Of a stretch of DNA of 60,214 nt, positions 4,462 to 58,803 are shown piece by piece. A program made the position numbers and the translations under genes. The notes beneath the pieces are model-generated. The model searched no databases. It saw only the letters and a program-made list of their open reading frames with translations, and was not told where the DNA came from. This DNA is from Minisyncoccia bacterium (lineage in GTDB: Bacteria; Patescibacteriota; Minisyncoccia; Phycocordibacterales; CALRBL01). The number at the start of each line of letters is the position of its first letter. The first letter of the stretch is position 1. The stretch lies in contig JBBRNV010000002.1 of the NCBI GenBank assembly GCA_038230075.1, forward strand, positions 1 to 60,214, in the 5' to 3' direction.

Positions 4462-4944
4462 CTAGAACTCTAAGCCAAGAGGATTTTTCTTCTCTTTGCT
4501 CATTCTTTCTTTTGCATTGTTTTGAAGTTCTTTAGTTTCCTTCGCGTATGCCCCCTCGTTAATATCAAGACTCCATGTAAGTTCTTTTAATTTACTCTCA
4601 TTAATTTTTGGAATAATAATTGAAGGCATTTCTCCAAGTTGTGTAATAGTTTCCTTCACTTTCTTTTCTTGTTTCTTCCAAATATATAAACGATCACTTA
4701 AGTAGAAATGAAATGCAGCTTCTACCACGTCTATAAATGGCTTATTATTTACTTTATAAAAAGCTAACGCTAAAGAAAACACGGCGAATGCTGGAATAAC
4801 AAAAATGTAGAGAAAGATTGGAAGAAATTTATAGGAAATGAAGCAGAGTCCAGCGCCTCCAGCAAGATATACGAATTGTCTAAAGGTGAGAGGACCAAAT
4901 ATTTTATCTTCTACTTCAATAAATTGAGGTACCTGAAATCGCAT
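4462..4944 (-). CDS. PrgI-family (VirB3-like) membrane protein
   Basis: MRFQVPQFIEVEDKIFGPLTFRQF, two TM helices, LALAFYKVNNKPF. Confidence 0.85.
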   Translation of the reverse strand: MRFQVPQFIEVEDKIFGPLTFRQFVYLAGGAGLCFISYKFLPIFLYIFVIPAFAVFSLALAFYKVNNKPFIDVVEAAFHFYLSDRLYIWKKQEKKVKETITQLGEMPSIIIPKINESKLKELTWSLDINEGAYAKETKELQNNAKERMSKEKKNPLGLEF

Positions 4945-10394: not shown

Positions 10395-10413
10395 TGTGTT
10401 AATTTTCTTTTCA

Positions 10414-34646: not shown

Positions 34647-36401
34647 ATGAGGAAAATTATTATTTTGGTTGCTTCGTTGTTAATGATTGTTGCTACAATC
34701 ATCTCACAGTATTTTTTATTCTCATCTGTTGAAGCGCAAACGTCAGCAAGACAAATGTCTGGATGGGCTTGGTCTTCAAATATAGGATGGGTAAACTTTA
34801 GAGGAACTGACTCTCGAGGTACTCCTTTATATGGAGTTAATGTTGATCCTTCAACTGGTGCGCTTAGTGGATACGCTTGGTCTTCAAATCTTGGTTGGTT
34901 ATCTTTCAACTCTACTGATAGTCGAGTGTGTGGAACTCCTGCTGTCTATAATAATAGTACAAAAACATTTTCTGGTTTCGCGGTATTTTTGTCGGGAAAA
35001 AGCAGAACAGACGGATGGGATGGTTGTGTAAAATTAGGAAACTCAGGAATATACGGATGGATAGTTACCAATGCTAGAAAAGGATCTGGGAATGATCAGT
35101 TAAGCACTGATGCTCCAAATTTTGCATGGGGAAGTACTGTTGTTGGTTGGTTTAAGTCTTATAATCTTGAAATTTCTGGAAATACTAACGATACCGATGT
35201 TCCGTTTCCTGTCGCAACAAGCGGAGATTCTTGTGGGTTGATCAGCGTCAGTTGGGAACCTGTAACCGGCGCAAGTGCATATAATGTATACAAGAGTACG
35301 AGTGTTGATTCGGGCTACACAGTTTTTGCAAAAGGAACGACTACAACAAACTTTATCGACAACACACTCGATCAAAATGGTGGACAATATTTTTATAAAG
35401 TGTCGTCTATTATAAATGGTGTTGAAAGCGCCCTTTCTTCGCCGGTTTCTGCAAATGCACAAATTGCAGGTTGTACAGGAAGTAATGTTCCTGCGCCAAC
35501 AGCAGCAACAGGAGCATCGTGTGGATATGTAAACATTAGTTGGCCTCCCGTTAGTGGAGCAACAGGATATAGTGTTTATCGAAGTGCTAGTGTTGGCGGG
35601 GCATACTCATTAATCATTTCAGCAACAACATCTGCTGCAATTGCTGACAACACACAAGATCATGCGGGTGCTACATTCTACTATAAAGTCACCTCAATTG
35701 TTGGCGGAGTTGAAAGTCCACAGTCGAACCCTGTCTCTGCTGCTGCGCAAACAAATGGTTGTGTGGTGCTTAATCCTCCAAGTTCAGTATCTGCAGGAAC
35801 AGGCTCTCTTTGTGGAGGAATTGATATCTCTTGGAATGCAGCTGTTGGTGCTCATCATTACTATGTTTATCGAAGTACGAGCGCTGCGGGAACTTACGTA
35901 AATCGAACTCCAGGAGGAATACTCGGCCTCACATACACTGACCAAACAAGTAGTTCACTTGGAAATACTTATTACTACAAGGTTTCATCTGCAAATGCAG
36001 CAGGAGATCAAGAAAGCGCTCTTAGTTCACCAGCCGCATCTGCTTCGGCAAATACATCAGCGTGTCCTGCTGGAATCATTAACGCTTCGATCGATTCTTT
36101 CTTTGCTCAACCACCAGTTGTTCCTAAGGGCCGAGCATGTACCCTTGAATGGCATGGAGTAACTGGAGATACAAACTGTTCTGTATATAAAGATTCAATT
36201 AGTGTCGCAAATAAAGTCTACGATGTTCCGACTGTTCCTTTTGGAACAAGCACTCGTGCGGTTGATGGTAACTGGATTGCATCATCAAGTCTCCAGTCGA
36301 CAACACAGTATTGGTTACAATGTAATGGTGTTGGTGCAGGAGCACTTCAGGCTCAGATGCAAACCAAATGTTATCTTCCAACTAAATACACAGAATTTTA
36401 A
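34647..36401 (+). CDS. Secreted protein with WAWSSNxGW repeats and three FN3-like repeats
   Basis: Signal MRKIIILV; GWAWSSNIGWV, GYAWSSNLGWL; CGLISVSW, CGYVNISW, CGGIDISW repeats. Confidence 0.8.
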   Translation: MRKIIILVASLLMIVATIISQYFLFSSVEAQTSARQMSGWAWSSNIGWVNFRGTDSRGTPLYGVNVDPSTGALSGYAWSSNLGWLSFNSTDSRVCGTPAVYNNSTKTFSGFAVFLSGKSRTDGWDGCVKLGNSGIYGWIVTNARKGSGNDQLSTDAPNFAWGSTVVGWFKSYNLEISGNTNDTDVPFPVATSGDSCGLISVSWEPVTGASAYNVYKSTSVDSGYTVFAKGTTTTNFIDNTLDQNGGQYFYKVSSIINGVESALSSPVSANAQIAGCTGSNVPAPTAATGASCGYVNISWPPVSGATGYSVYRSASVGGAYSLIISATTSAAIADNTQDHAGATFYYKVTSIVGGVESPQSNPVSAAAQTNGCVVLNPPSSVSAGTGSLCGGIDISWNAAVGAHHYYVYRSTSAAGTYVNRTPGGILGLTYTDQTSSSLGNTYYYKVSSANAAGDQESALSSPAASASANTSACPAGIINASIDSFFAQPPVVPKGRACTLEWHGVTGDTNCSVYKDSISVANKVYDVPTVPFGTSTRAVDGNWIASSSLQSTTQYWLQCNGVGAGALQAQMQTKCYLPTKYTEF

Positions 36402-36403
36402 AC

Positions 36404-36766
36404 ATGGTCTACAATTTAAATCAAAACTTAGGAACGGAGTATCAAAAAGATGAACATCGAAAAAAAGTGTATACGGTTTTAGTTATTGCATGCATACTTT
36501 TAATTATTGGAATTATTATTTCGCTTTTTATATACAATAAAAGTTCGCCACCAGGCAACAGTAGTCCGACTGAGAAAAAAGAAGTGTTGTTCGATAAGAC
36601 ACAAGAAAATCTCGGACAAGATCTCAGTACAAAAGAAAAACAAGACTTGATTAAGATGACACAGACCCAACAAGTAAAAGCAACAAGTTCAAAAGGCCAA
36701 ACAACACAGACAACAATAAATCAAAGTAAAAAAACAGATTTAATAAATTTAACAGCAGGAAATTAA
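36404..36766 (+). CDS. Single-TM hypothetical protein
   Basis: 120 aa; one TM; 2 nt after upstream gene. Confidence 0.65.
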   Translation: MVYNLNQNLGTEYQKDEHRKKVYTVLVIACILLIIGIIISLFIYNKSSPPGNSSPTEKKEVLFDKTQENLGQDLSTKEKQDLIKMTQTQQVKATSSKGQTTQTTINQSKKTDLINLTAGN

Positions 36767-36776
36767 TAGCATTATT

Positions 36777-38870
36777 ATGAAAAAACACATTACAACAAGT
36801 CACCTTACAAGATTCCTTCTCACAGCACTTACAAGTGTCGCCTTCGTTCTTACTTCTTCATACCTTTATGCTCAAATATCCTCAGATGGTTCTACCTTCA
36901 CAGAACCAGCAGGAGCTCCTCCTGGATACAACACCAACACGCCTTTAAATGTTGGAACATCACCACAATCAAAAGCACCGACAAACGTTTCTGGAACTTC
37001 TACTTTGAACATTGGAGGAGTATTCAGTGCTGATGGAATCACTTCTTTTGGAAATGCTGCAATCGGTGGGAATCTTTATGTGACGAGTGGTAATGTGGGA
37101 ATCGGTTCAACAACACCTTCTCAGAAACTGAGTGTGACTGGAAATGTGGCAGCCACACAATTTTGTCTTCCCGGATCACTTCCTACAGGAGGTTGTGTAT
37201 CAAACTGGACGACGATAGGTGGTGGAGGAAGTACTTCAAGTACAAGCACGGTGAGTGGAACACTTAATAAATTTGCAAAATTTACCGCATCAAATGCAAT
37301 TGGAAACTCTATTCTTACAGAAAGTGGATCAAATGTAACTCTTGGATCAGTAAACAGTTCAATTCAAATCGGTCTTAATGATGCAACGCAAGGTTTCTGG
37401 ATCAGAAATGACGGATCAAATCCTGTGATCAGTACTAAAATCGGAGACATCTTCATGGGTTATTCTGGACGTTCTGGAATGGTATGGAGATTTGGTGCAA
37501 GTGGCACAGGTATGCTTATTTCAAACGATGCTCCAGCAAATGCTTTCACCATTGCTTCAAATGGAAATATTGGAGTTGGAAAAGCTGCTGGTGGAGTTGC
37601 AATGGATGTAGTTGGGCAAGTTAGAGCAGACGGCGCTTCGGCAGGTGTGATGATTAATGACCGTTCAACAAATAGACAATGGCAACTTTACGGATCTAAC
37701 GACAGTTTCCGTCTATATAATGGTGCTGCTGATGCTCTTACTGTTGACACAGTTGGAAATATTACCGCAGGTGCAATTGGTACAGCAGGTTCTCTTCCTA
37801 GTGACAAACCTTCAGGATGGGCGGGTGGAGTTTCAACATATGATGTGGTAGCGAAGGCATCAGTTCGAGCCAATCAATTCTGTATTGGGGGAGGAATTAA
37901 CTCAACTGCTACTGGAACTTGTATCACATCATGGCCAACTGGAAGTGGTTCACTTAGCGGAACAACAAATAAAATCACAAAATTCACCAGTAGTAGTGCG
38001 GTGGGTGACTCACAAATAACTGATACAGGAACAAATGTTGGGGTTGGTATTGCCGTACCAACTCAAAAATTGAGTGTAAACGGAACCATGAGTGTGAACG
38101 GAAGAATATTTACAGGTAACGGCGGAGGAATGTGGTTTGATAGTGATCTTACAAACAACGGTCATCAGTTTGTTGGAGCTATTAGTTCTACCCAATTAGG
38201 ATTTTATAATGATGGATGGAATTTTGTTCTAGATAATAGTGGTAAAGTTGGAATTGGAACGGTGTCGCCGTCACAACGTCTTGATGTTGCTGGAAATGTT
38301 AATGTGGGAGGAAATTTGTATGGGTCAAATGGAACAGAATTCCAAATTGCTCCAGCAAATGCTGGAGGCAATCTTAGACTTGATGCTAATGACAACACTG
38401 CAGGAGACGTGACTATTGGACTTATTAAAGCTCGTGCGGTAGAAGTGTTTGCTTCAGGTGAGCCTGTTTCAGGAACCGTGTTTGCGGTAACTAAACGAGG
38501 TTCACCCGCATCTTTTGTTCTCGATACAAGTAACAATGGAAACTTCTCAGGTAGTGTTACCGCAAACGCATTTTACTATCAGTCTGACGAACGATTGAAA
38601 ACAAATATTAAAACATTAGGAGATAGTCTAAGTAAGATCTTACAATTACGAGGAGTTTCATTTAATTGGAAAGAAACTGGTAAATCAAATATTGGATTAA
38701 TTGCTCAAGAAGTTGAGAAAGTCTATCCAGATGCAGTTACTACAAATGAGAAAACTGGAATCAAGAGTGTAGAGTATGCAAACCTTGTGGCACCACTTAT
38801 TGAAGCAGTAAAAGATCAACAAAAACAAATCGAAGCATTGAAAGTTGAAATTGAAAATCTAAAAAAATAA
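36777..38870 (+). CDS. Exported tail-fibre/spike-like protein with C-terminal peptidase S74 intramolecular chaperone
   Basis: Signal-like N-terminus; GNVGIG repeats; YQSDERLKTNI...LRGVSFNWK...IGLIAQEVEKVYP...VEYANLVAPLIEAVK coiled coil. Confidence 0.87.
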   Translation: MKKHITTSHLTRFLLTALTSVAFVLTSSYLYAQISSDGSTFTEPAGAPPGYNTNTPLNVGTSPQSKAPTNVSGTSTLNIGGVFSADGITSFGNAAIGGNLYVTSGNVGIGSTTPSQKLSVTGNVAATQFCLPGSLPTGGCVSNWTTIGGGGSTSSTSTVSGTLNKFAKFTASNAIGNSILTESGSNVTLGSVNSSIQIGLNDATQGFWIRNDGSNPVISTKIGDIFMGYSGRSGMVWRFGASGTGMLISNDAPANAFTIASNGNIGVGKAAGGVAMDVVGQVRADGASAGVMINDRSTNRQWQLYGSNDSFRLYNGAADALTVDTVGNITAGAIGTAGSLPSDKPSGWAGGVSTYDVVAKASVRANQFCIGGGINSTATGTCITSWPTGSGSLSGTTNKITKFTSSSAVGDSQITDTGTNVGVGIAVPTQKLSVNGTMSVNGRIFTGNGGGMWFDSDLTNNGHQFVGAISSTQLGFYNDGWNFVLDNSGKVGIGTVSPSQRLDVAGNVNVGGNLYGSNGTEFQIAPANAGGNLRLDANDNTAGDVTIGLIKARAVEVFASGEPVSGTVFAVTKRGSPASFVLDTSNNGNFSGSVTANAFYYQSDERLKTNIKTLGDSLSKILQLRGVSFNWKETGKSNIGLIAQEVEKVYPDAVTTNEKTGIKSVEYANLVAPLIEAVKDQQKQIEALKVEIENLKK

Positions 38871-38888
38871 ATCACACTTAAGATATTT

Positions 38889-39710
38889 ATGAAAAAAACT
38901 CTCGTAACTGCAGCAAGTATTGTCCTCGCTTTTGCTGGCGTTACTTTGTTGTACGGATATACCCATTCAACATACCGAGCAAGATATGTAAGTAGTTCTG
39001 AACAAGTGTCACAGTTATATGGACCAAACAACGAAGACTATGCAACTAACCAGGTTAACGAATATGGTCAATGTATTACCGTTATAAATACATCAAATAC
39101 AAATAAAGATGTGTTTATTCCAACAGCGTCTTCGTCTGAGTTTAATCTTTTCTTAAGTTCTGCAACAAATAATGGTGGATACCTAAAACAAAATGGTGTA
39201 AGTATTGGTGCTTGTAGTACAAACGTTGTTCACACTGGTTCTTGCTCGCAACAAATATTTCATGAACCAAATCCAACTGGTGGTACTAGATATCATGCCG
39301 ACATTCAAACAGCAAATCACGCATGTATATTGAAAGGGTACGAAGGAGGAAAAGTCATCTCAACAGTTTCTTTTGATTCTCCAAGTAACAACCACACTGA
39401 TTTTTGGAATGATGGATCAGTTGCTGGATATGGCGCTGGTTGGATCAACTCGGTAGCAAATGCTAACGCAAATCCTTATGGAATAGGCATGAACTCACTC
39501 ATTAGAGACCTTGCTTGTTACAGTGGAGGATCTTCATGTGCACTTGTTTGTGGAAATGGAAGAGTTGATGTTGGGGAACAGTGTGAGCCTGGTGCAAACA
39601 ATACAACACAAGACTTTTGTGGAAATGATGTTAATCAATGCGATCCAACTTACTGCGTTATTCCTTCGCATCATAGTGGTCCGGGATACACCACTGGTCC
39701 TTGTAACTAA
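38889..39710 (+). CDS. Secreted Cys-rich protein with Myxococcus-type (DUF4215-like) repeat
   Basis: Signal peptide; CGNGRVDVGEQCEPG; many Cys. Confidence 0.7.
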   Translation: MKKTLVTAASIVLAFAGVTLLYGYTHSTYRARYVSSSEQVSQLYGPNNEDYATNQVNEYGQCITVINTSNTNKDVFIPTASSSEFNLFLSSATNNGGYLKQNGVSIGACSTNVVHTGSCSQQIFHEPNPTGGTRYHADIQTANHACILKGYEGGKVISTVSFDSPSNNHTDFWNDGSVAGYGAGWINSVANANANPYGIGMNSLIRDLACYSGGSSCALVCGNGRVDVGEQCEPGANNTTQDFCGNDVNQCDPTYCVIPSHHSGPGYTTGPCN

Positions 39711-39733
39711 TATTTAAAAAAATTGAATAGTTT

Positions 39734-39775
39734 CTATACTGGCCATATTGACTAAAATCAATATGGCCAGTATAG
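39734..39775. repeat. Perfect 18-bp inverted repeat
   Basis: CTATACTGGCCATATTGA-ctaaaa-TCAATATGGCCAGTATAG. Confidence 0.85.
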
Positions 39776-39874
39776 TTATGTTCGGTAAGGTTGAGTGGTG
39801 TAAGCCTCACAGCTTGGACTTTTCAACAATAGTAAACCTCAGATCACATCGGTCAAAATTCGGTAATCAGCTCT

Positions 39875-40606
39875 ATGAAAACATACATCCGTCGGCTCCT
39901 TGCGAGCTTGTTGGTTCTCGTCGCGGCATGTGTCGCGTCTTCGGTTCATGCCCAGGTTTCGACCTCGGTAATGAGTCAGGCGGAGTACAACGCCTTCGTT
40001 GCGGTTCACCCGTTGTCTTTCAATGTGCAGCAGCAGGCAGGAGACAACTTCTTCGGAAGTGGGCCACAGTCGGAAGTTTTGATGTCAGGAGGAGTCGGAG
40101 GCAGTTATGGATCTGACTACGACTATTCGTTCTCAACTCAGACCCCCGTGACTGTAGCCGTTAATTCCGCCCTCATTAGGTCGAGCTTCTCAGAAGGTTC
40201 GCCGACAGGTGTCGTGATGAGTGGTGCCTTTCTGGCCACACTTCCTTCGTTTCTGGTCATCAGCGTGAGCACTACAGATTCGCGTTACCAGATCTCAGCA
40301 CAGGGAATCGTGGTGAACGGTCAAAACGTTTCTGCCGGAATCAGCACTTCAGTCGGCGCACAAACAATTCACCTGCTCATTTCTGGGTTAACCGCTGCGA
40401 CGCTCGATGTGTCATTGACCAGTATGTTTGGGAACAACGGTGCACCACCGCCATTCTCGACGTTCACCGGGAGCAATGAACAGCTTCGCATCGAAGGGTT
40501 CACCGGACAGATTCCGGAACCTTCCACAGTTGTAGCGTTCGCGATTGGCCTCGGCCTTATCGCTTTCGCTCAACGTCGGCGCAATGTTTGCGTCGGCAAC
40601 AGTTGA
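39875..40606 (+). CDS. PEP-CTERM sorting-domain protein
   Basis: Signal peptide ending VHA; C-terminal IPEPSTVVAFAIGLGLIAFAQRRR; GC-rich relative to flanks. Confidence 0.87.
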   Translation: MKTYIRRLLASLLVLVAACVASSVHAQVSTSVMSQAEYNAFVAVHPLSFNVQQQAGDNFFGSGPQSEVLMSGGVGGSYGSDYDYSFSTQTPVTVAVNSALIRSSFSEGSPTGVVMSGAFLATLPSFLVISVSTTDSRYQISAQGIVVNGQNVSAGISTSVGAQTIHLLISGLTAATLDVSLTSMFGNNGAPPPFSTFTGSNEQLRIEGFTGQIPEPSTVVAFAIGLGLIAFAQRRRNVCVGNS

Positions 40607-40628
40607 TCGCTTCGGCGGCAATCATCTG

Positions 40629-40666
40629 AGGACTCATGTGTTTTGCTTCGGCAAGCCATGAGTCCT
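40629..40666 (+). terminator. Hairpin/terminator after PEP-CTERM gene
   Basis: AGGACTCATG...TTGC-TTCG-GCAA...CATGAGTCCT then T-rich tract. Confidence 0.7.
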
Positions 40667-40716
40667 TTCGGTTTTTATATAATTTATTTTTTCATTTTCA
40701 TTTTTTTGTTTTGAGC

Positions 40717-40727
40717 TGTGATATAAT
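40717..40727 (+). promoter_or_regulatory. Extended -10 motif TGTGATATA(A/G)T, repeated at 42527 and 43071
   Basis: Same 11-mer before pilB, the 42544 ORF and pilC. Confidence 0.7.
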
Positions 40728-40738
40728 TTCACTCGTAT

Positions 40739-42493
40739 ATGTTCGTCAATGAACAACAGCTTCGAAATTTTATGCTTGACTCTGGCTTAATTGCCGAGGA
40801 AGACATTGATGCTGCCCAAAAAAAAGCAGAAGATAAAAATGTTTCGTTCGGACAAATTCTTGTTAATGAAGGAAAGCTTAAAGAAGATGATCTTCGTCGA
40901 ATGCATGCATATGTTCTCGGTATTCCTTTTGTTGAATTAAAAAATCAGAAAATAGATTTCGCCATTCTTTCACTTATTCCTGAACCAATTGCTCGAAATC
41001 ATAATATTATTGCGTATAAACGAACCGCTGATTCTCTTGAAGTTGCCATGCTTGATGGAGACGACCTCGGTGCAATTGACTTTGTTCGAAAGAAAGTAGA
41101 TCTTAGAATTCTTCCACGCCTTACCGATACAGAATCAATGAAATCGGCACTTCTTCAGTATCAGAAAAGTTTGAAAGCTGATTTCGGAGATATTATTCAG
41201 AAAGAATCCGTTAATATTAAATCACTTGTTGATAGTGATGGGGGAGCGCCTGCATCTGAGGCAGATTTGAAAAAGATGGCAGAAGATTTACCAGTTATTC
41301 GAATTGTTGACACACTTTTAAAACACGCCATTCTTCAAAATGCTTCCGATATTCATATTGAACCTCAAGAAACTGAGGTTATTGTTCGATATCGAATCGA
41401 TGGCTTGCTTCATGAAGCCATGGTTCTGCCAAAAAACGCAGGAGACTCAATTACAGCGCGCCTTAAGGTGCTTTCAAATTTAAAGCTCGATGAAAAACGA
41501 CTTCCACAAGACGGACGATTTAAAATTGAGATGAACGGCGAGAAAGTGTCATTTCGAGTATCAATGCTTCCTATTTATTACGGCGAAAAAACTGTAATGC
41601 GATTGTTGCGAGAAAATGTTTCTGGATTCACTCTTGAATATCTCGGTTTTCACGGAGAAGGCTTAGAGCGAATTTATGAATCAACCAAGCTCGCTAATGG
41701 TTTAATTTTAACAACAGGGCCAACGGGTTCTGGAAAAACCACCACGCTTTATACGGTGCTCGATATTTTAAATACACCCGATGTAAATATTTCAACCATT
41801 GAAGATCCTGTTGAATATCAAATGAAGCGTATTAATCAAACGCAGGTTAAGCCTGAAATTGGTTTTACGTTTGCCTCAGGTCTTCGATCGTTGGTGCGAC
41901 AAGATCCTGATGTAATTATGGTGGGAGAAATTCGAGATACAGAAACTGCCTCACTCGCCATTAACGCCGCACTTACGGGTCACTTGGTACTTTCGACACT
42001 TCACACCAACTCTGCGGCAGGTGCTATTCCTCGACTAATTGATATGCATTCAGAACCGTTTTTAATTGTTTCCACGATTAGCATTATTGTTGCCCAACGA
42101 CTTATTCGAAAACTAGGGGATAGTAAAGAAAAGTATTTCTTAACAAAAGATGAAATCGTCCAATTAGCTAAAAAGATTGATCTTGAACGTGTGCTTAAGT
42201 TCTTAAAAACAGAAAAAATTGTTAAAGCTGATGTTGAATGGGAAAAGATTCCGTTTTATAAAGCAGTTAAGACACCAGAAAGCGAAGACGGATTTAAGGG
42301 AAGAATTGGAATTCACGAAGTGCTTAAAATGAGTACAACTATTAAGGATATTATTATGAAAGGGGGGACAGCAGACGCTATTGAGGCGCAAGCCAAGAAA
42401 GATGGAATGATGACCATGCTTGAAGACGGAATCTTTCAGTGTGTACAAGGTGTTACAACTATTGAAGAAGTATTGAGAGTTATTTCAGAATAA
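40739..42493 (+). CDS. pilB: Type IV pilus assembly ATPase PilB/GspE
   Basis: ASDIHIEP, TGPTGSGKTT, EDPVE, RQDPDVIMVGEIRD, STLHTN. Confidence 0.95.
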   Translation: MFVNEQQLRNFMLDSGLIAEEDIDAAQKKAEDKNVSFGQILVNEGKLKEDDLRRMHAYVLGIPFVELKNQKIDFAILSLIPEPIARNHNIIAYKRTADSLEVAMLDGDDLGAIDFVRKKVDLRILPRLTDTESMKSALLQYQKSLKADFGDIIQKESVNIKSLVDSDGGAPASEADLKKMAEDLPVIRIVDTLLKHAILQNASDIHIEPQETEVIVRYRIDGLLHEAMVLPKNAGDSITARLKVLSNLKLDEKRLPQDGRFKIEMNGEKVSFRVSMLPIYYGEKTVMRLLRENVSGFTLEYLGFHGEGLERIYESTKLANGLILTTGPTGSGKTTTLYTVLDILNTPDVNISTIEDPVEYQMKRINQTQVKPEIGFTFASGLRSLVRQDPDVIMVGEIRDTETASLAINAALTGHLVLSTLHTNSAAGAIPRLIDMHSEPFLIVSTISIIVAQRLIRKLGDSKEKYFLTKDEIVQLAKKIDLERVLKFLKTEKIVKADVEWEKIPFYKAVKTPESEDGFKGRIGIHEVLKMSTTIKDIIMKGGTADAIEAQAKKDGMMTMLEDGIFQCVQGVTTIEEVLRVISE

Positions 42494-42543
42494 AAGCACA
42501 TATATACTTTTATTTTGATTTTTTCTTGTGATATAGTTTGCCT

Positions 42544-43050
42544 ATGGAACTACCAATAGAAAATACTCAAGAATCAGTTGATCACGCCGCAACTCAAAAG
42601 CTCATTAGAGAAGTGATGATGAAAGGTAGAAAGTTTGCTTACATAGCAATGGCCATCTTTGGTTTAAATGTTGCTTCGAATGTCGCAAAGAATGTTAATT
42701 CTATGAAGAATGATAACGAAATGACACAACGCTTGTTGGAAGTTGAAAAAACAAGGTCTGCTGAACTTTCTGTTGATCCTTCCCATAAACTTCAAGAACT
42801 AATGACTATTTTGAATACACGAATGTCATATCTTGATAAGAGTTTAAGAAAAGATGAACTCACTCCCGCTGATAGACTTCTCATTGCTGAGCTAAATAGA
42901 ATTGTTAATAGTGAAGATGTTTACACAAATGAATCGGCAGGAACAGGCTACTCTACTGAACCTTATGTATACAACACAGCCACACCTTCAAATGGTGTTG
43001 TTCCTAATGTTCAACCTGGCACAAATACTAAAATTCAAGAAGAGAAATAA
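42544..43050 (+). CDS. Single-TM hypothetical protein inserted between pilB and pilC
   Basis: Own -10 box 6 nt before ATG; KGRKFAYIAMAIFGL hydrophobic segment. Confidence 0.65.
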   Translation: MELPIENTQESVDHAATQKLIREVMMKGRKFAYIAMAIFGLNVASNVAKNVNSMKNDNEMTQRLLEVEKTRSAELSVDPSHKLQELMTILNTRMSYLDKSLRKDELTPADRLLIAELNRIVNSEDVYTNESAGTGYSTEPYVYNTATPSNGVVPNVQPGTNTKIQEEK

Positions 43051-43087
43051 TAGATATTCTTGTTTTTCTTTGTGATATAATTCGCAG

Positions 43088-44311
43088 ATGAAGTACACCT
43101 ATACTGCTCGCCGTGGCGACGGTACAACCTATCATGAGACAAAAGAATTTGCAGATAAGTTTGCGCTTTTCCACGAAGTAAAAAAAACAGGCGACACACT
43201 TGTTGAGTTTAAAGAAGATGCTGCACATGACGGCTGGTGGAATCATCTCGATGCATACGTTAACGACTTTTTTGGAAAAGTAAAAATGCAAGAACGAATA
43301 GCCTTCGCTCGAAACTTGGGAGGAATGCTTGAAGCGGGCCTCGCTCTGTCTCGAGCGCTTTCTGTGATGGAACGACAGACACGAAATAAGAAACTAAAGA
43401 AAATTTATGCAGACCTTAACGCTTCGATCAGTAAAGGAAAAACATTTCATGAAGCATTGGCTGATTATCCTAAAATTTTTAACACTCTTTTTATTTCAAT
43501 GGTGCGAGCAGGAGAAGAGTCGGGAACATTGGCAAAATCTTTGAGCCAAGTAGGACAGCAACTTGAGAAGAACTACATGCTTGGAAAGAAAATCAAAAGT
43601 GCAATGATTTACCCAGCAATTATCATCACTATTATGATTATCATTGGGATTTTGATGATGATTATTGTAGTTCCTCGACTTACTGAAACATTTAAAGATG
43701 TGCATGCCGAGCTTCCATGGAGCACCAAGTTGGTTATTTTTGTTAGTGACTTGTGCAAGTCATCATGGCCATATCTTATTTTAGGAGCGGTCGTTATTGC
43801 TACAGCTTGTTATTTTGCAGTACGCACTAAAGCTGGGAGATCATTCTTTGATTTTATTTTCATACACTTTCCTATCTTTGGAAGTATTGTAAGGGAAAGT
43901 AACACTGCAAGAACCGCTCGAACACTTTCATCATTACTTACGTCAGGAGTAGAAGTTGTTCTCGCCACACAAATTACAGGCGACGTTCTTCAAAACTCGT
44001 ATTATAAAGACGTCATGTACGGATTGGGAAAACAAATTGAAAAAGGAGATCCAATGTCAGAAACATTTTTGAAAAATGAAAAGCTTTTTCCGGTCTTTTT
44101 AGGTGAGATGGTGTCGGTAGGGGAAGAAACAGGTCGAATTTCTAATATGCTTGAAGGGGTGGCGGTTTTTTATGAAAATGAGGTTGATCAGAAAACAAAA
44201 GATATTTCGACTTTGATTGAGCCATTTCTCATGGTCATTATTGGTGTCTCTGTTGGATTTTTTGCAATTGCCATGATTACACCTACGTATTCGGTATTGA
44301 ATAATATTTAA
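43088..44311 (+). CDS. pilC: Type IV pilus platform protein PilC/GspF
   Basis: MVRAGEESGTL, KIKSAMIYP, VGEETG, LIEPFLMVIIG. Confidence 0.95.
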   Translation: MKYTYTARRGDGTTYHETKEFADKFALFHEVKKTGDTLVEFKEDAAHDGWWNHLDAYVNDFFGKVKMQERIAFARNLGGMLEAGLALSRALSVMERQTRNKKLKKIYADLNASISKGKTFHEALADYPKIFNTLFISMVRAGEESGTLAKSLSQVGQQLEKNYMLGKKIKSAMIYPAIIITIMIIIGILMMIIVVPRLTETFKDVHAELPWSTKLVIFVSDLCKSSWPYLILGAVVIATACYFAVRTKAGRSFFDFIFIHFPIFGSIVRESNTARTARTLSSLLTSGVEVVLATQITGDVLQNSYYKDVMYGLGKQIEKGDPMSETFLKNEKLFPVFLGEMVSVGEETGRISNMLEGVAVFYENEVDQKTKDISTLIEPFLMVIIGVSVGFFAIAMITPTYSVLNNI

Positions 44312-46141
44312 ATGTTTGCAAAAACATATACACATATAAAAAATAAGACCTCAGGATTCACTCTTGTTGAAATTTTGGTGGTAATTGCGGTTTTTGTTCT
44401 CATTATCAGTGCTATTTCAACAACATATAGTAAGACAATTAATTTGCTTACATATAATAAAATGAAAATCGATGCTATCGATTTGGCAAATGAACAAATT
44501 GAAATACTTCACAATCTTCCATTTGCAGATGTTGGAGTTGTTGGAGGTATTCCTTCAGGAAAGTTGGCTCATCAGTTTGCAACCACAAGAGATGGAAGTT
44601 CATTTGTGGTTACTACAACTATTAGAAACATCGATGATCCGGCAGATGGTACTCTTGGTGGCACACCAAACGATCTTTCTCCTGCAGATTACAAGTTGGC
44701 TGAAGTTGGAGTTTCATGTGATCGTGCATATTCTGCAGCCCAGGGTGCAACAAGTAGTTGCCTAAGCTTCACTCCTGTATCATTAACTGCAATCGTGGCG
44801 CCTAAGAACTTAGAAACAGCATCAAATAACGGTGCTTTGTTTGTTAAAGTTTTCGACGCCAATGGAATTGCTGTTTCAAATGCAGCTGTTCATATAAGTA
44901 ACACAAAAGTAACACCGAACATTACTATCGACGACACAACTGATACAAATGGATTACTTCAAATCGTTGACGCTCCAACAAGTACCAATGGATACTCAAT
45001 TAGTGTAACAAAGAGTGGATTCTCAACTGACAAGACGTATCCTGTTGTTGGATCAACAACACCATATAAGACAGACTCAACAGTTCTTGTTCAGCAAGTG
45101 ACACAAACAAGTTTGAGTATTGATCAGACAAGTACTATTAACTTCTCAAGTATCAATGCTTCTTGTGCCGCAGTACCAAGTGTTCGTTTCAAAATGGTCG
45201 GAGGAAAGCTAATTAGTGTTAATAATCCAAAGTCCACCTCGACAATAACTACTGATGCTGGTGGAAACTACACGATGAATAATGTGGAATGGGACACATA
45301 CAGCATTACCCCATTTGATCTCACATACGACATTATTGGACTAAATCCTATCTCACCAATCAGTGTTCTTCCAGGAAGCACTCAGCCAATTAGTATTATG
45401 GTTGAACCAAAGAATCCAAATATTGTTTTGGTAAATGTTAAAGACGGCTCAAGCAATCTTCCACTTTCAGATGCAATTGTTACTCTTTCTTCTGGCTCTA
45501 GTTCTGCAACTCTTCAAACTGGAAGAGGATTCGTGAGACAAACAAATTGGTCAGGAGGTGCCGGTCAAACAGATTTTTCTAATCAAACACGATTTGATAC
45601 GTCATCGAACATTAACTACTCGGGGGTGACAGGTCAGATTACCTTGGCCGCTGGTTTTTCAAGTGGAAATCTAACCTCTTCTATTATTGATATGGGAACC
45701 GCAACTAACTTTAATCAAATTTTGTGGGCGCCTACAAGTCAGCCAGTTCAAACAGGTGCGGCGACTTCAAGTGTTAGATTACAAATCGCAACAAGTAACA
45801 CTAACAATGCAACAACAACGTGGACATATGTAGGACCAGATAGAACATCAGGTACATACTTCACTACTGCTAACCAAACAATTAACGCCGCACAAAATGG
45901 AACACAATATATTCGATATAAAGTGTACCTTTCTACAGCAAACAATGCCTATACTCCAACAATTGCAGATGTCTCACTCACGTTTACTTCATCATGTGTT
46001 CCTCCAGGGCAAGTAGTATTTGATGGATTAAGTTCGGGAACATATAACTTATCGGTAACACGAAGTGGATATACTTCGTACGCTGGAACTGTTGATGTAT
46101 CAACTGCTTGGCAGGTAAGTAATATTTCAATGAATCCATAA
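44312..46141 (+). CDS. Very large prepilin (PilV-like) with beta-sandwich domains
   Basis: SG|FTLVEILVVIAVF class III signal; carboxypeptidase-regulatory-like VKVFDANG...YSISVTKSGF. Confidence 0.85.
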   Translation: MFAKTYTHIKNKTSGFTLVEILVVIAVFVLIISAISTTYSKTINLLTYNKMKIDAIDLANEQIEILHNLPFADVGVVGGIPSGKLAHQFATTRDGSSFVVTTTIRNIDDPADGTLGGTPNDLSPADYKLAEVGVSCDRAYSAAQGATSSCLSFTPVSLTAIVAPKNLETASNNGALFVKVFDANGIAVSNAAVHISNTKVTPNITIDDTTDTNGLLQIVDAPTSTNGYSISVTKSGFSTDKTYPVVGSTTPYKTDSTVLVQQVTQTSLSIDQTSTINFSSINASCAAVPSVRFKMVGGKLISVNNPKSTSTITTDAGGNYTMNNVEWDTYSITPFDLTYDIIGLNPISPISVLPGSTQPISIMVEPKNPNIVLVNVKDGSSNLPLSDAIVTLSSGSSSATLQTGRGFVRQTNWSGGAGQTDFSNQTRFDTSSNINYSGVTGQITLAAGFSSGNLTSSIIDMGTATNFNQILWAPTSQPVQTGAATSSVRLQIATSNTNNATTTWTYVGPDRTSGTYFTTANQTINAAQNGTQYIRYKVYLSTANNAYTPTIADVSLTFTSSCVPPGQVVFDGLSSGTYNLSVTRSGYTSYAGTVDVSTAWQVSNISMNP

Positions 46142-46142
46142 T

Positions 46143-46790
46143 ATGAAAATAACTTTTCAAAAAAAGAATAATGTAAAAAAAGGATTTACTTTGGTTGAAA
46201 TGATTGTTGTTCTGGGAATATTATCTGTTATCGGTCTTCTTGTCTCAGAATTTCAAGCAGAAGTATTTACGTATAACAGACTATTGAGTGCTGGTAATAC
46301 TGGGCGAACTGAAGGAACAAAAGTGGTGAAGCAGATTGCAGCAGAGCTTCGAGCGATGTCACCCTCGAGTGCGGGAGGTTATGCAATTGAAGATGTCGGA
46401 ACAAGTACTATCACATTCTATAATGACCTTGATGATGACGGGGTTAAAGAACGAATCAGATATTACCTTTCAGGTACGACGCTCTATAAGGGAACAATGA
46501 AGCCGATTATTAATGCATTCGGACAAACGCTTACTAGTGAAGCGACTTCTACCATTATCACCAATGTTGTAAATGATGCTGTGACTCCTATTTTTACGTA
46601 TTACGATACGGGGTATAACGGAGGACAATCAAGTGCGACTTCAAGTTCTGCACTTACGTATCCTATTAATATTTCAAACATTCGACTAATTAAAATTTCA
46701 GTATTTTCAGATAATAATAAGAAAGAACCTCTTGCTCCGTTGCAACTTCAGACACAAGTTTCGATAAGAAATCTTAAAGACAATTTATAA
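46143..46790 (+). CDS. Minor pilin PilW/GspJ-like
   Basis: KG|FTLVEMIVVLG; IAAELR; IRYYLSGTTLYKG; TQVSIRN. Confidence 0.85.
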   Translation: MKITFQKKNNVKKGFTLVEMIVVLGILSVIGLLVSEFQAEVFTYNRLLSAGNTGRTEGTKVVKQIAAELRAMSPSSAGGYAIEDVGTSTITFYNDLDDDGVKERIRYYLSGTTLYKGTMKPIINAFGQTLTSEATSTIITNVVNDAVTPIFTYYDTGYNGGQSSATSSSALTYPINISNIRLIKISVFSDNNKKEPLAPLQLQTQVSIRNLKDNL

Positions 46791-46791
46791 T

Positions 46792-48294
46792 ATGAATTTT
46801 TTTACTCTAAAAGATAAACAACAGAAAAAGAAAGTGAAAGGTTTCCTTCTTGTTGGTATTCTTGTGTTTGCCTCTGTGGCGGTGCTTGTTTTAACAGCTA
46901 TTGTTACAGGTGCTGTTGTTAATATTCGTTTAGTAAATAGTGAAATTGATCGTGAGCAGGCATTTCATATTGCAGAATCAGGGATTGAATATTATCGATG
47001 GCATTTGGCTCACTTTGCAACAGACTATAACGACGGGCACGGATCAACTTCGACGGGTCCGTATATTCATCAATTAAATGATAAAGACGGAAATGCTCTT
47101 GGAAACTTTATTCTGACCGTCACTCCTCCGATTTCAGGATCAACCCTTGTTAAAATTCAGTCGAATGGAGTTGATGCAAACGGTGCAAGTACCACACGAA
47201 AAATTACTTCGACTTTGGCAATTCCATCACTTGCAAAATACGCCGTTGCTGCAAACGACAATATGCGTTTTGGTCCGGGAACTGTGGTGTATGGGCCAAT
47301 TCATTCAAATGCAGGTATTCGATTTGACGGATTAACATACAACCTTATGACAAGTGCTTTGTCTGCATACGACGACCCAGATCACAGTGGTGGGCAAGAG
47401 TTTGCAGTTCACACACACGTTAATGCTCCACCGTCATTAGGTGTTAACGACACATTTCGCTCTGCTGAAGCCCCGCCAGCTTCAGTTCCAAGTAGAACTG
47501 ACATATTTAAAGCAGGAAGACAGTTTCCTGTGAGTTCGATTGATTTTAGTGGATTCACCACCGATCTCTCTGCAATGAAAACAAAGGCGCAGGCGAGTAG
47601 TACCTACTATGCTCCGTCAGGCGCTCGTGGATACCACATTATTCTCAAAACTAACGGAACCTTCGATTTATATAGAGTAAATACTCTCATGAATGCTCCC
47701 GGAGGTTGTACTGATCCTTCAGGAAGTGATGCTACGTGGGGGACATGGTCTATTTCAGCGGCGGGAGGTTCACAAACACTCATTGGAAACTATTCTATTC
47801 CTAATAACGGTGTTATTTTCACCGAAGATAACCTTTGGATCGACGGACAAATTAATACAAAACGAATAACCATTGCAGCCGGAAAGTTTCCTGATAACGC
47901 AGCAACACGACCTGCCATAACGGTTAACTCAAACCTTACTTACACCAACTACACAGGAACTGATGTTATTGCCCTTGTTTCTCAAGGAAATGTGAATGTG
48001 GGCTTAAATAGTGCTGATAATCTTAGAATAGATGGCGCACTTGTTGCTCAAAACGGAAGAACAGGGCGTTATTACTACGATGATGGTAGTTGTGGCTCAA
48101 CTGCAGATCGAACAAGTATTACCCTGTATGGCATGTTAGCTACAAACTTACGATACGGATTCGCCTATACTGACGGAACAGGGTATGCGACACGAAATAT
48201 TACTTATGATGGAACACTTTTGTACGGTCCTCCTCCAAGTTTTCCACTCACTTCAAACCAGTACCAGACAATTTCTTGGGAAGAATTGAAATAG
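46792..48294 (+). CDS. Minor pilin PilX-like with large C-terminal domain
   Basis: KG|FLLVGILVF (no E5); EQAFHIAESGIEY; C-terminal ISWEEL. Confidence 0.82.
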   Translation: MNFFTLKDKQQKKKVKGFLLVGILVFASVAVLVLTAIVTGAVVNIRLVNSEIDREQAFHIAESGIEYYRWHLAHFATDYNDGHGSTSTGPYIHQLNDKDGNALGNFILTVTPPISGSTLVKIQSNGVDANGASTTRKITSTLAIPSLAKYAVAANDNMRFGPGTVVYGPIHSNAGIRFDGLTYNLMTSALSAYDDPDHSGGQEFAVHTHVNAPPSLGVNDTFRSAEAPPASVPSRTDIFKAGRQFPVSSIDFSGFTTDLSAMKTKAQASSTYYAPSGARGYHIILKTNGTFDLYRVNTLMNAPGGCTDPSGSDATWGTWSISAAGGSQTLIGNYSIPNNGVIFTEDNLWIDGQINTKRITIAAGKFPDNAATRPAITVNSNLTYTNYTGTDVIALVSQGNVNVGLNSADNLRIDGALVAQNGRTGRYYYDDGSCGSTADRTSITLYGMLATNLRYGFAYTDGTGYATRNITYDGTLLYGPPPSFPLTSNQYQTISWEELK

Positions 48295-50796: not shown

Positions 50797-52617
50797 ATGT
50801 CACCCGTACATCCGCCAATTCCTGAAGAGACAAATAAAGAACTCGAAGAATATTCAGAATTACTTCGCCACCTGCTCTTTCATCGTGGTGTAAAGACTCG
50901 AGAAGAAGCAGAAAAGTTTCTTCGGCCAAAATATGAAGACAATCACGATCCATTCTTAATGCCAGGAATGGAAAAAGCAGTTGAGCGTTTTTTGAAAGCG
51001 ATCGATTCAAATGAACACATTGTGGTGTATAGCGATTACGATGCTGATGGAATTCCAGGAGCTGTTTTATTTGCCAGTTTTTTGAAGAAAATTGGATATC
51101 TTAATTACTCACACTACGTTCCTGACCGTCACGAAGAAGGATTTGGAGTGAACATTGATGCCATTAATGAAATTGTCGCTCGACGTGATGCGTTAAGGGC
51201 TGACAAAAGTTCAGGCACAACAGAAATTTTCATGATAACGATTGATTGTGGTATTTCAGATGTAATTCCTCTCAAAAAAGCGTACGAATCAAAGATTGAT
51301 GTCGTTGTGACAGATCACCATTTGCCTGGGCTTGAGCTTCCAAAAGCATATGCCATTGTAAATCCAAAAGTAGAAGAAAAGGTTGGAAAGAAAAAGATGG
51401 TGTACCCCTTTGATATGCTTTGTGGTTCTGGAGTTATTTTTAAATTTGTTCAAGGTGTTCTTGCAAAAAGAAGCTTTGAAGAAAAAGGAATGAAAGCGGG
51501 TCAAGAGAAATGGTTATTAGATATGGTAGGAATCGCGACTTTGTCTGACATGGTTCCACTTGTTGGTGAAAATAGAATTTTTGCACACTACGGGTTAGCG
51601 GTACTTCGAAAGTCTCCTCGAATTGGGCTTCGAAAGCTTCTTGCAAAGCAGCGAATTAATCAGGGAACACTTTCAGAAGATGATATTGGTTTTACTATTT
51701 CTCCTCGTATTAATGCAGCATCACGAATGGGAAAAGCAGAATTTGCACTCAACTTATTTCTTGCAGATGACGAAATTGAAGCAGATCGCCTTGCTACTAT
51801 TCTTCAGAAGTTAAATGATGAACGAAAAGGAGTGGTTGCTTCAATTGTTAAACAACTGCACAAAGAGCTCGAAGAAGAAGCAATTTCAAAAGATTTGGCA
51901 GAATATAGTCGGCCGGTGATTGTAAGGGGAAATCCATTATGGCGACCATCACTTATGGGACTCGCTGCTAACTCGATGGTCGAACGATATCGTTGTCCTG
52001 TGTTTTTGTGGGGAAGAGGAGAAGAGTTTGATATTACGAGTGAGGGAAATATTAAAGGATCATGCAGATCTGATGGAACGGTGAGTGTGGTTGAAGTGAT
52101 GCGAAAAGCAGAAGTAATCGCTAAAGAAGAGTTGGGTAAAGAATTGTTTTTACATGCAGGTGGGCATGCAATGTCTGGAGGTTTTGCGGTGACACATGAA
52201 CACGTGCATATTATTCCTGAATATTTAGAAAAAGCTGTTGTTGCTATTGGAAGAGTTGATCGTTTTCAAGCACTCACCGCAGATTTGGTATTAACACTTG
52301 ATGAAGTAGATCAGCGACTATTTGTTGAGCTTTCAAAACTCGGACCTTTCGGTGAAGGAAATCAAAAGCCATTATTTTTATTTAAAGATATTGTTCCCAA
52401 AGATCTAAAACAATTTGGAAAAAACAAAGAACATTTTCAAATGAGTTTTGCAAAAAGTCGTGGAGGAGTTTTAAATGCAATTTCATTCTTTACTCGACCA
52501 ATTGATTTTCAAACAGAGCCTGTTGGTGGGAGACCGCTTTCAATGCTCGCACACGTCGAGCACTCAAGTTTTATGGGAAGAAGTGAAATTCGATTGAGAG
52601 TGGTTGAGGTAATGTAG
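50797..52617 (+). CDS. recJ: Single-stranded DNA exonuclease RecJ
   Basis: DYDADG, ITIDCG, TDHH, PRINAASR, GGHAMSGG, PFGEGN. Confidence 0.96.
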   Translation: MSPVHPPIPEETNKELEEYSELLRHLLFHRGVKTREEAEKFLRPKYEDNHDPFLMPGMEKAVERFLKAIDSNEHIVVYSDYDADGIPGAVLFASFLKKIGYLNYSHYVPDRHEEGFGVNIDAINEIVARRDALRADKSSGTTEIFMITIDCGISDVIPLKKAYESKIDVVVTDHHLPGLELPKAYAIVNPKVEEKVGKKKMVYPFDMLCGSGVIFKFVQGVLAKRSFEEKGMKAGQEKWLLDMVGIATLSDMVPLVGENRIFAHYGLAVLRKSPRIGLRKLLAKQRINQGTLSEDDIGFTISPRINAASRMGKAEFALNLFLADDEIEADRLATILQKLNDERKGVVASIVKQLHKELEEEAISKDLAEYSRPVIVRGNPLWRPSLMGLAANSMVERYRCPVFLWGRGEEFDITSEGNIKGSCRSDGTVSVVEVMRKAEVIAKEELGKELFLHAGGHAMSGGFAVTHEHVHIIPEYLEKAVVAIGRVDRFQALTADLVLTLDEVDQRLFVELSKLGPFGEGNQKPLFLFKDIVPKDLKQFGKNKEHFQMSFAKSRGGVLNAISFFTRPIDFQTEPVGGRPLSMLAHVEHSSFMGRSEIRLRVVEVM

Positions 52618-58018: not shown

Positions 58019-58112
58019 TTTCTTTACAGAAGGAATATTCGGTGGTTTAATCATTTTGAACTTAGTCAGCCTATTCCGAGGCTTCAACCAAACGGAAATT
58101 AGTAATATTGCC

Positions 58113-58535
58113 ATGAAAACAAGCACAGTGTTCGACTTGATTGGTCTTTGTGCCACGATCCTTGGTGTGATCGCTCTCATTGCCACCTTTTACTTCTGGG
58201 ACCAGGAGGCATCACACTTTCTCTTCCCGATCGGCCTTAGCCTACTCCTCGTCGGCTCGACCCTGATCTGGTTCGGCGAGTTCTACAAATGGGAAAAGAA
58301 TCTCGATCACCTCTCCGAGGTTTTTGCTACACTAGCGAGCATGTGTGGATTTGTATGCATCGCCTGTTTCTTCTTCGCTTTTCGCGATATGGAAAGCGAC
58401 GACTTTGATTACTACGGTTTCGCCGCGGTTATCGCGCTTGCCGAAGGCTTCGTTTTCCATGTTTGTAGTCGGCCATGTGTTGAACTGGAAAGGCGACAGC
58501 CTCCTCCGAATCTCACGCCAGGTTGCATGAATTAA
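58113..58535 (+). CDS. GC-rich four-TM hypothetical protein
   Basis: Start MKTSTVF; four hydrophobic helices; composition differs from flanks. Confidence 0.6.
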   Translation: MKTSTVFDLIGLCATILGVIALIATFYFWDQEASHFLFPIGLSLLLVGSTLIWFGEFYKWEKNLDHLSEVFATLASMCGFVCIACFFFAFRDMESDDFDYYGFAAVIALAEGFVFHVCSRPCVELERRQPPPNLTPGCMN

Positions 58536-58587
58536 TGACGGCAACCACAAGATCGACTGATCTGCTGGCACTGTTTTGTCACCCAAG

Positions 58588-58616
58588 AAAGGCCACCTCA
58601 CAAGGGAGGCCTTTTT
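58588..58616 (+). terminator. Intrinsic terminator
   Basis: AAAGGCC...GGCCTTT followed by T tract. Confidence 0.7.
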
Positions 58617-58803
58617 CTTTTGCCATTTCTTTGTATATATAGTATAGTCGCTGAACGTCATCCGATGGCTTCTGGCTCTAAAAAGCTTGAAAACAGCAGA
58701 TGTCAGTAAATTAATAGTGATGAGCTTAGTAACTAATGGCTGTACTACACAGTCAAAAGTGAAAGAAAGCCTCATCAAATGTTAGAAATAATCACATAGC
58801 AAT

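Follow-up and report, generated by a model that had tools for sequence, protein, structure and literature searches.

In T2- and S16-type phages, the gene that follows the tail fibre gene encodes a separate, variable adhesin, which attaches to the fibre tip (gp37 with gp38). The predatory bacterium Bdellovibrio bacteriovorus bears mosaic adhesive trimer (MAT) fibres on its surface, which serve in prey recognition (Caulton et al. 2024, PMC10769870). In the sections of that report consulted here, MAT fibres are described as having a signal peptide and sharing a conserved, beta-rich N-terminal domain of ~130 amino acids (aa), with a capping-loop motif V-G-G/N-pi-x-x-P-x-x-x-L in the beta-helix and an S74 domain with its catalytic motif SDxxxK in 13 of 21. 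In Saccharibacteria, the pili include the large minor pilins PilX1 and PilX2, which carry accessory domains, and a PilX-type protein devoid of the canonical PilD signal (PMC11623550). We analysed a stretch of 60,214 nucleotides (nt) from a Minisyncoccia bacterium (assembly GCA_038230075.1, contig JBBRNV010000002.1, positions 1 to 60,214 of the forward strand), hereafter the window, in which eleven co-oriented open reading frames (ORFs) were called on the + strand between 34.6 and 48.3 kb. We consider it likely, with a probability of roughly 0.6, that these 13.6 kb consist of three independent units, the first of which is a chromosomal cassette that builds a secreted, tail-fibre-like surface fibre. 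MAT fibres are the nearest cellular family to this fibre, and gp37/gp38 of T-even phages is its nearest functional analogy.

The three units are the fibre cassette (34647-39710), a PEP-CTERM gene (39875-40606) and a pilus operon (40739-48294). The cassette contains four genes, which encode a GWxWS/FN3 protein, a small membrane protein, the S74 fibre and a Cys-rich protein hereafter called the partner. Strong terminator-like hairpins split the transcription units between the fibre block, the PEP-CTERM gene and pilB. The perfect hairpin just past the cassette (Table 1) has no second copy in the window, and the sister genome has a classic terminator at the matching position; it is likely the terminator and the operon boundary of the cassette. 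A search for tandem repeats across the region found none. Housekeeping genes flank the region, nusA, ppa, tig and clpP upstream on the opposite strand and tpiA and pgk on the downstream side. The closest relative is a metagenome-assembled genome of Candidatus Paceibacteria (the sister, locus L001), and its RNase Y, ClpP, NusA and PilB are 72-86% identical to those of the window, so the assignment of the window to the candidate phyla radiation (CPR, Patescibacteria) holds. Both genomes are present in the sample SRR19962015. Between the two genomes, the pilus proteins are 64-83% identical and the housekeeping proteins mostly 50-86%, in comparison with 34-53% for the cassette proteins, of which the small membrane protein and the partner could be aligned over 27 and 55 residues, respectively. 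These values demonstrate that the fibre cassette diverges much faster than its neighbouring genes.

The fibre precursor begins with a predicted signal peptide and a conserved N-terminal module, FTEPxxAPPGxNTxxPLNVG, continues as a shaft that bears VGIGxxxPxxKL loops, and ends in an S74 chaperone/protease. The Pfam profile PF13884 matched aa 603-655 with 66.4 bits, well above the cut-off of 22, and a hidden Markov model (HMM) of S74 built in this analysis scored 157.8 bits. Inspection of the putative autocleavage motif revealed that S603, R606 and K608 are invariant across 12 homologues (alignment A2). The signal peptide was predicted from the hydropathy of the n- and h-regions rather than by a dedicated signal-peptide predictor; the n-region reads MKKHITTSHLTR, and the h-region has a Kyte-Doolittle (KD) value of 2.3, versus 0.6-1.2 in phage-like homologues. 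Among the homologues compared, signal-peptide-like N-termini are confined to one subfamily, designated WTxP, in which the signal peptide is followed by WTxPxxxPPxxNxxAPxNxGxxxQxK; the phage-like homologues have neither. The minimal member of the family (L065:2638-3219) would leave a mature fibre of ~60 aa after the predicted S74 cleavage, nearly the WTxP module alone, which suggests a functional core in the N-module and a shaft that is free to vary in length.

We then compared the fibre with the MAT fibres at the level of profiles. When the A2 profile (12 sequences) was searched against the PDB, it matched the Bdellovibrio MAT fragments 8ond (Bd2133, E 1.7e-12), 8oml (6e-5), 8ol4 (7e-5) and 8ojn (6e-4). 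Like the MAT fibres as described in the consulted sections, the window fibre is cellular and has a predicted signal peptide, a conserved N-terminus, a long, putatively trimeric shaft with loops that resemble the VG..P...L type and an S74 domain with SDxxxK, and both occur in bacteria that live on other bacteria. The capping-loop-like VGIGxxxPxxKL motif is present in three to four copies and is one residue longer than the published one. There are differences as well. The window host belongs to the CPR (Paceibacteria), which is not among the taxa listed in the PMC10769870 supplement. The N-module, compared by description only, is a short WTxPxxxPPxxNxxAPxNxG motif, in contrast to the ~130-aa MAT domain. 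The locus encodes a partner module, a GWxWS protein and a small membrane protein, none of which is mentioned in the consulted sections of that report, and some relatives of the window fibre are fused to prepilin N-termini. No report linking S74 fibres to Patescibacteria or to pilins was found in a literature search. In our reading, the cassette is a new form of MAT-like S74 fibre in the CPR, distinguished by a conserved partner module and repeated fusion to pilins.

The fibre is also related to phage proteins. PHROG tail-fibre families cover aa 160-696, and the A2 profile matched the distal subunit of the long tail fibre of phage S16 (gp37 tip, 6f45, E 2e-21) and 8jov, homology that falls in the C-terminal shaft and the S74 domain. 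The arrangement of a fibre with a separately encoded adhesin, as in gp37-gp38, is what we would propose for cassette genes 3 and 4. The partner, however, has no detectable homology to gp38 or to any PHROG, its attachment to the fibre is a prediction, and the window proteins would be Sec-exported cellular proteins and not parts of a virion. The PHROG matches, the abundance of S74 fibres in viral contigs and a tyrosine recombinase 14 kb away (20546-21544) could be explained if the cassette were what is left of a prophage, or a receptor-binding module domesticated from a phage and lacking a cellular role of its own. We consider this very improbable. No phage structural, packaging or lysis genes were found in the window, and the cassette is flanked by nusA, ppa, tig and the pilus operon. 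The Sec signal predicted for the fibre is missing from its phage-like homologues. The GC content of the cassette equals that of the genome, and in the sister genome the cassette is syntenic, between nusA and pilB. The WTxP and GWxWS queries had no match in 80 viral S74 loci (854 kb, 99 S74 ORFs), where the HMM of the partner module had one weak match. This lone match (L179:1260-2076, on an IMG/VR contig, E 1e-4) lies directly after an S74 gene, and may come from a CPR phage or from a misclassified cellular fragment. A DNA pattern back-translated from the partner motif matched none of 2.9 M viral contigs, and had four matches in the loci collected here. Since sheath, tube and baseplate genes are all missing from the window, a tailocin or extracellular contractile injection system was rejected.

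The partner is encoded directly 3' of the fibre gene. Its predicted signal peptide is followed by a conserved module of ~55 aa bounded by Cys (~aa 43-111, nt 39015-39221), whose core is VFIPTASSSEFNLF, and by a variable tail rich in Cys that carries a single CGNGxxDxGEQC repeat, a Myxococcus-type Cys repeat. Across the family, the module is ~55 aa long, usually lies between two Cys, has the core [YVI]F[IV]PTKTxxEWxxF, and is found in the gene directly downstream of the fibre. When this core was used as a regular expression, 17 of 11,667 six-frame ORF segments matched, 16 of them being the ORF just downstream of an S74 gene. The module HMM revealed the pair of S74 fibre and partner at ~23 loci, and had no match in 55 other pilus loci. 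A word-indexed protein search with the partner returned only the protein itself, and an exhaustive phmmer search only proteins with the CGNGxxDxGEQC repeat and long proteins that resemble spurious leucine-rich repeat matches. The module alignment (A3) had no match in the protein database, in a word-indexed search in which a short module bears a large E-value correction. Pfam, NCBIfam, PHROGs and PADLOC held nothing for the partner, for the 170-aa ORF between pilB and pilC (ORF170) or for the 500-aa pilin, and no description of the partner module was found in the family libraries or the literature searched.

Past the module, the partner tails are unrelated between loci, and include TSP1, DUF11, Laminin_G_3, Hint-like segments and GY repeats. 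A conserved N-module followed by a hypervariable C-terminus is typical of polymorphic toxins, and we asked how well the cassette would fit an effector device in which the N-module is a trafficking domain and the C-terminus a payload delivered by the fibre. The very quick divergence of the cassette agrees with it, as does the L073 partner, whose Hint-like segment (CFVAGTKVTMADGS...) is of a kind seen ahead of toxin domains. The recognised variable tails are of adhesion or lectin types (TSP1, DUF11, Laminin_G_3 and Cys repeats), however, and no toxin or immunity family was matched. Nor does a small immunity-like gene follow the window partner, the next gene being the foreign PEP-CTERM gene. We therefore judge a toxin device unlikely, and favour the surface fibre, on which the partner tail would be the part that meets a ligand.

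The first two genes of the cassette recur with the fibre. In the gene 1 product, a Sec-type signal precedes an N-terminal domain of GWxWSxNxGWxxF repeats (~aa 35-190), which is followed by three FN3-like modules and, at the C-terminus, an Ig-like domain; the homologue in the sister is 34-37% identical and has a single FN3 module. The GWxWS domain is found near S74 genes in seven further loci (L065, L068, L070, L074, L079, L145 and L148). Gene 2 encodes a protein of the single-pass membrane type, with one hydrophobic segment and a low-complexity polar tail, and a small transmembrane protein of low complexity adjoins S74 in L001, L006, L066 and L145. All four gene types stand in a row in L145, and the contexts of the cassette in L066 and L074 are chromosomal. 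The four genes are thus a recurrent, fast-evolving cassette, whose products are predicted to be exported. A defence system was excluded, as PADLOC gave null results for gene 1, the S74 fibre, the partner, the PEP-CTERM protein, ORF170 and the 500-aa pilin; the small membrane protein had a marginal match to PD-T4-6 (E 0.0013, 16 bits), which was treated as noise.

Whether the cassette belongs with the pilus genes was determined by a survey of pilus loci. The 500-aa pilin was used as the query with one genome per species, the gene order was read by tblastn, and the fibre was sought with the S74 HMM. We obtained 56 orthologous Paceibacteria loci (26-71% identity to the query), nearly all of which keep the order pilB-pilC-609-215-500, always with the 500-aa pilin last. 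The S74 HMM found the fibre in L008 alone, which is the same contig as the sister L001 and the only one with S74 among the 39 loci that have at least 2.5 kb of sequence upstream of pilB. In six loci with nusA...tpiA-pgk synteny (L010, L011, L016, L019, L022 and L052), nusA abuts pilB at a distance of 58-581 nt. A conserved linkage of cassette and pilus thus fails, since only the sister carries the cassette and nusA abuts pilB in six relatives. Therefore, we can conclude that a common ancestor of the window genome and the sister acquired the cassette by insertion between nusA and pilB. The pilus operon itself is an ordinary, conserved feature of Paceibacteria.

These results bear on the preliminary description of the region, in which the spike block, the PEP-CTERM gene and the pilus genes had been read as a single candidate host-attachment locus. 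Its gene list stands: ORF calls and Pfam/NCBIfam searches recovered the FN3, transmembrane, spike, Cys-rich and PEP-CTERM proteins, pilB, pilC and the pilins on the + strand at the positions in Table 1, with a tight four-gene block (gaps of 2, 10 and 18 nt) and a triad of minor pilins that has two large members. It had omitted the 170-aa ORF at 42538-43050, the GC island of the PEP-CTERM gene and the strong hairpins between the units. The single conserved locus is not supported, because S74 occurs in 1 of 39 pilus loci, hairpins split the units and the PEP-CTERM gene is foreign, and the synteny survey that it had proposed found the spike block largely unlinked to pilus genes in relatives (38 of 39 pilus operons lack the cassette). 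Of its proposal that the block encodes a pilus-associated or cell-surface adhesin assembly, the conserved link to pilB/pilC is lost, while the recurrent exported cassette, its adjacency to type IV pilus genes in L148 and L074/L068, and the prepilin fusions speak for the remainder.

Those last observations leave room for a closer tie. In L148 (5137-15300), an S74 fibre of 944 aa and a 586-aa GWxWS/Cys-repeat protein lie directly upstream of pilM and are co-oriented with pilB; the three ORFs between pilM and pilB (493, 227 and 123 aa), at the position of pilN and pilO, have no family match. In L074 (50-16334), a long co-oriented run of pilin-like genes ends with the fibre and the partner, and a PilM/N fusion follows after 4 kb. 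The run begins with a GWxWS protein, a WTxP protein without S74, a pilin-like 201-aa protein and a LamG/DUF2341 protein of 1183 aa, and continues with a prepilin-GWxWS fusion, a PilX-like 627-aa protein, a Fib_succ_major protein, the S74 fibre and the partner. The fibre and the partner likewise end a pilin-like run in L068, a short contig, where the prepilin domain passes TIGR02532. In all, four proteins carry the fibre or the GWxWS domain on a prepilin N-terminus, namely the S74 fusions P0010 and P0059 and the GWxWS fusions in L068 and L074.

On this basis, the fibre cassette could be an accessory of the type IV pilus, in which case the minor-pilin tip complex would present or prime the fibre and its partners, and the two would jointly set the host range. 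The cassette adjoins pilus genes in the same orientation in three separate lineages (window/L001, L148 and L074/L068), and large CPR minor pilins have been proposed as tip adhesins in Saccharibacteria (PMC11623550). These adjacency counts, however, stand without an unbiased background rate of type IV pilus genes per locus, and no such gene is found in the majority of fibre loci that come with over 10 kb of context (L006, L066, L069, L085 and L145). Most homologues of the fibre do not adjoin pilB or pilC: no PilB or PilC homologue was found in any of 80 metagenome fibre loci, nor in L003, L005, L006 and L007, L148 being the exception. The class III prepilin signal is present in none of the four window cassette proteins, terminators stand between the cassette and the pilus units, and the near absence of the cassette from orthologous pilus operons also argues against it. 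Pilin-type N-termini, in turn, may be a general route of surface display in CPR bacteria. We regard the pilus accessory as doubtful, though clearly less so than the phage and toxin explanations. Physical cooperation of the cassette with pili we rate as possible only, because adjacency and fusions exist but the five loci with long context show no pilus gene nearby.

The second unit is the PEP-CTERM gene. The C-terminus of the PEP-CTERM protein has an IPEPS motif, a hydrophobic helix and RRR, and its gene occupies a sharp island of 53% GC (~39800-40670, 50-55%), in comparison with 33-40% on either side. The gene has its own hairpin with a T-run (40629-40680), and is absent from the otherwise syntenic sister, which marks it as foreign. 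An assembly chimera was ruled out as the source of the island; since both junctions are reproduced in an independent Logan assembly, the island is a real insertion. The PEP-CTERM gene is thus a horizontally acquired insertion that belongs to neither neighbouring unit. As in known PEP-CTERM/exosortase systems, the protein has a sorting domain above the Pfam and TIGR02595 thresholds; it differs from them in that the gene is single and lies in a foreign GC island, and no exosortase was found with Pfam among ORFs of at least 100 aa across the 60-kb window. An Rfam search of the island was empty, and a literature search found no paper that joins PEP-CTERM, exosortase and Patescibacteria. For a CPR genome, a PEP-CTERM protein is unusual in its own right.

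Table 1. Positions of the features of the 34.6-48.3 kb region in the window, with the evidence for each
Feature	Position	Strand	Evidence or remark
Cassette gene 1, GWxWS/FN3 protein, 584 aa	34647..36401	+	PDB 3mpc E 2e-8; phrog_4971 E 2e-18
Cassette gene 2, small membrane protein, 120 aa	36404..36766	+	hydrophobic segment aa 19-37
Cassette gene 3, S74 fibre precursor, 697 aa	36777..38870	+	Peptidase_S74 (Pfam) E 3e-18
Predicted autocleavage motif SDERLK, Ser603...Lys608	38583..38600	+	start of S74 domain
Cassette gene 4, partner, 273 aa, 12 Cys	38889..39710	+	module HMM; otherwise orphan sequence
Perfect 18-bp hairpin	39734..39775	+	24 nt past cassette; folding energy (dG) of region -38.5 kcal/mol, z -8.8
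PEP-CTERM gene, 243 aa	39875..40606	+	PF07589 23.9 bits vs 20.7; TIGR02595 21.4 vs 16
pilB, extension ATPase	40739..42493	+	T2SSE E 2e-119, MshEN domain; TIGR02538 E 2e-154
ORF170, 170 aa, lineage-specific, between pilB and pilC	42538..43050	+	ORF call; no family match
pilC, platform protein	43088..44311	+	T2SSF, two copies, E 1e-55
Large minor pilin, 609 aa	44312..46141	+	N_methyl and CarboxypepD_reg matches; GFTLVE motif
Minor pilin, 215 aa	46143..46790	+	N_methyl E 3e-7; TIGR02532; kept in the same ~50 loci as the 609-aa pilin
Large PilX/GspK-like minor pilin, 500 aa	46792..48294	+	hydrophobic N-terminus without Glu5

The third unit is the pilus operon. The pilB product is 83% identical to that of the sister. 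PilB and PilC score under the NCBIfam equivalog cut-offs, as expected for a divergent phylum. In ORF170, a long polar region comes after a short hydrophobic stretch (FAYIAMAIFGLNVASNVA). The sister, in which pilB and pilC are 58 nt apart, lacks this ORF; in L144, gene calling gave a gene of 168 aa. ORF170 may be either an accessory protein of the pilus restricted to this lineage or a spurious ORF. The 609-aa pilin has a prepilin N-terminus followed by CarboxypepD_reg-type beta-sandwich domains, and has orthologues in ~50 Paceibacteria loci. The 609-aa and 215-aa proteins have the class III signal (G/FTLxE). Glu5 is missing from the 500-aa protein, as it is from PilX/GspK-type proteins, and this protein had no Pfam or PDB match. 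As in the Saccharibacteria, the CPR locus has pilB, pilC and several minor pilins, the largest of which carry extra domains, and the 500-aa protein shares with the PilX-type protein the lack of a canonical PilD signal. The differences are that the window class is Paceibacteria, that the 609-aa pilin has CarboxypepD_reg beta-sandwiches and the 500-aa pilin a domain with no family match, and that no major pilin, PilD, PilM/N/O or PilT was found in the 60-kb window; these may be encoded elsewhere in the genome. A further difference is the presence of RecJ and ComEC (50797-52617 and 54031-55581) a few kb downstream of the operon. Because of these two genes, a role of the pilus in DNA uptake is as open as one in host attachment. 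Extra segments of 1.5-1.8 kb lie between the orthologues of the 609-aa and 215-aa pilins in ten loci (L013, L014, L027, L037, L040, L045, L047 and L049-L051), and ~0.9 kb between pilC and the 609-aa pilin in L016, L019 and L022. Since the window has neither segment, the gene content of the pilus operon varies.

Elsewhere in the window, two further GC-rich islands (up to 52%) stand out from the 38% GC of the genome. One (9900-10350) lies inside an orphan ORF on the - strand (9240-10460). The other (58050-58700) spans orphan ORFs upstream of rpsL-rpsG, and an Rfam ctRNA match at 58586-58623 is sub-threshold (36 bits, versus 50). A type IV secretion-like block occupies 1963-4944 on the - strand, with a VirB4/TraC-type ATPase split over two ORFs (1963-3786 and 3788-4444) and a PrgI-family protein (4462-4944), and is adjoined by an orphan of 1154 aa (5751-9215).

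Several points weigh against a secreted fibre cassette that is a unit of its own. The surveyed loci are a biased sample from a pattern search and not a census. The motif of the window partner is itself degenerate (VFIPTASSSEFNLF). Single-sequence AlphaFold2 models were unusable, with a predicted local distance difference test (pLDDT) of 34.6 for the partner and 39.2 for the N-terminal 200 aa of gene 1. The proposed docking of the partner on the fibre rests on gene adjacency and architecture, and the predictions of export, cleavage, trimerisation, surface location and binding come from the sequence. Established here are the genes present, their homologies, the catalytic motif, how the gene pair and the four gene types recur, the rapid divergence, how the insertions came about and the GC island. 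Finally, the recurrent adjacency to pilins and the fusions suggest that the phrase "independent of the pilus" may be too strong.

With these reservations, a working model for the fibre cassette can be drawn. All four proteins would be exported through Sec, the fibre as its full-length precursor. The C-terminal S74 domain would act as an intramolecular chaperone that aids trimerisation, and would then cut itself off at Ser603, leaving a fibre of ~570 aa. The conserved N-module would anchor the fibre at its cell-proximal end, and the ~55-aa module of the partner would dock on the fibre, so that the hypervariable, Cys-rich tail could serve as an exchangeable ligand-binding part that binds the host surface. 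The GWxWS/FN3 and small membrane proteins may be accessory, anchoring or spacing parts. The adjacency of the cassette to the pilus genes came from its insertion between nusA and pilB in this lineage. By analogy with the Bdellovibrio MAT fibres, the cassette most likely mediates adhesion to a host cell.

How CPR bacteria recognise and hold their hosts is largely unknown, and type IV pili are the main experimentally supported factor so far. The picture of this locus is corrected here: its PEP-CTERM gene came in from outside, and its pilus operon is an ordinary, conserved feature of Paceibacteria. A wider proposal, which we put forward only tentatively and hold to be rather improbable as a whole, is that CPR episymbionts carry a modular, rapidly diversifying, four-part kit for host recognition (a WTxP-S74 fibre, a partner whose Cys-rich tail can be swapped, a GWxWS-repeat protein and a small membrane protein), displayed free on the cell surface through Sec or fused to prepilins on type IV pili, and that here the Sec kit and the adjacent minor-pilin tip complex together determine which host is bound. 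The predicted cleavage at Ser603, the partner module and the fibre-pilin fusions offer testable handles. The cassette, the partner module and the fusions and adjacency to pilins are concrete candidates for determinants of host range, and the cassette is a good candidate for how these ultrasmall parasites grip their hosts.

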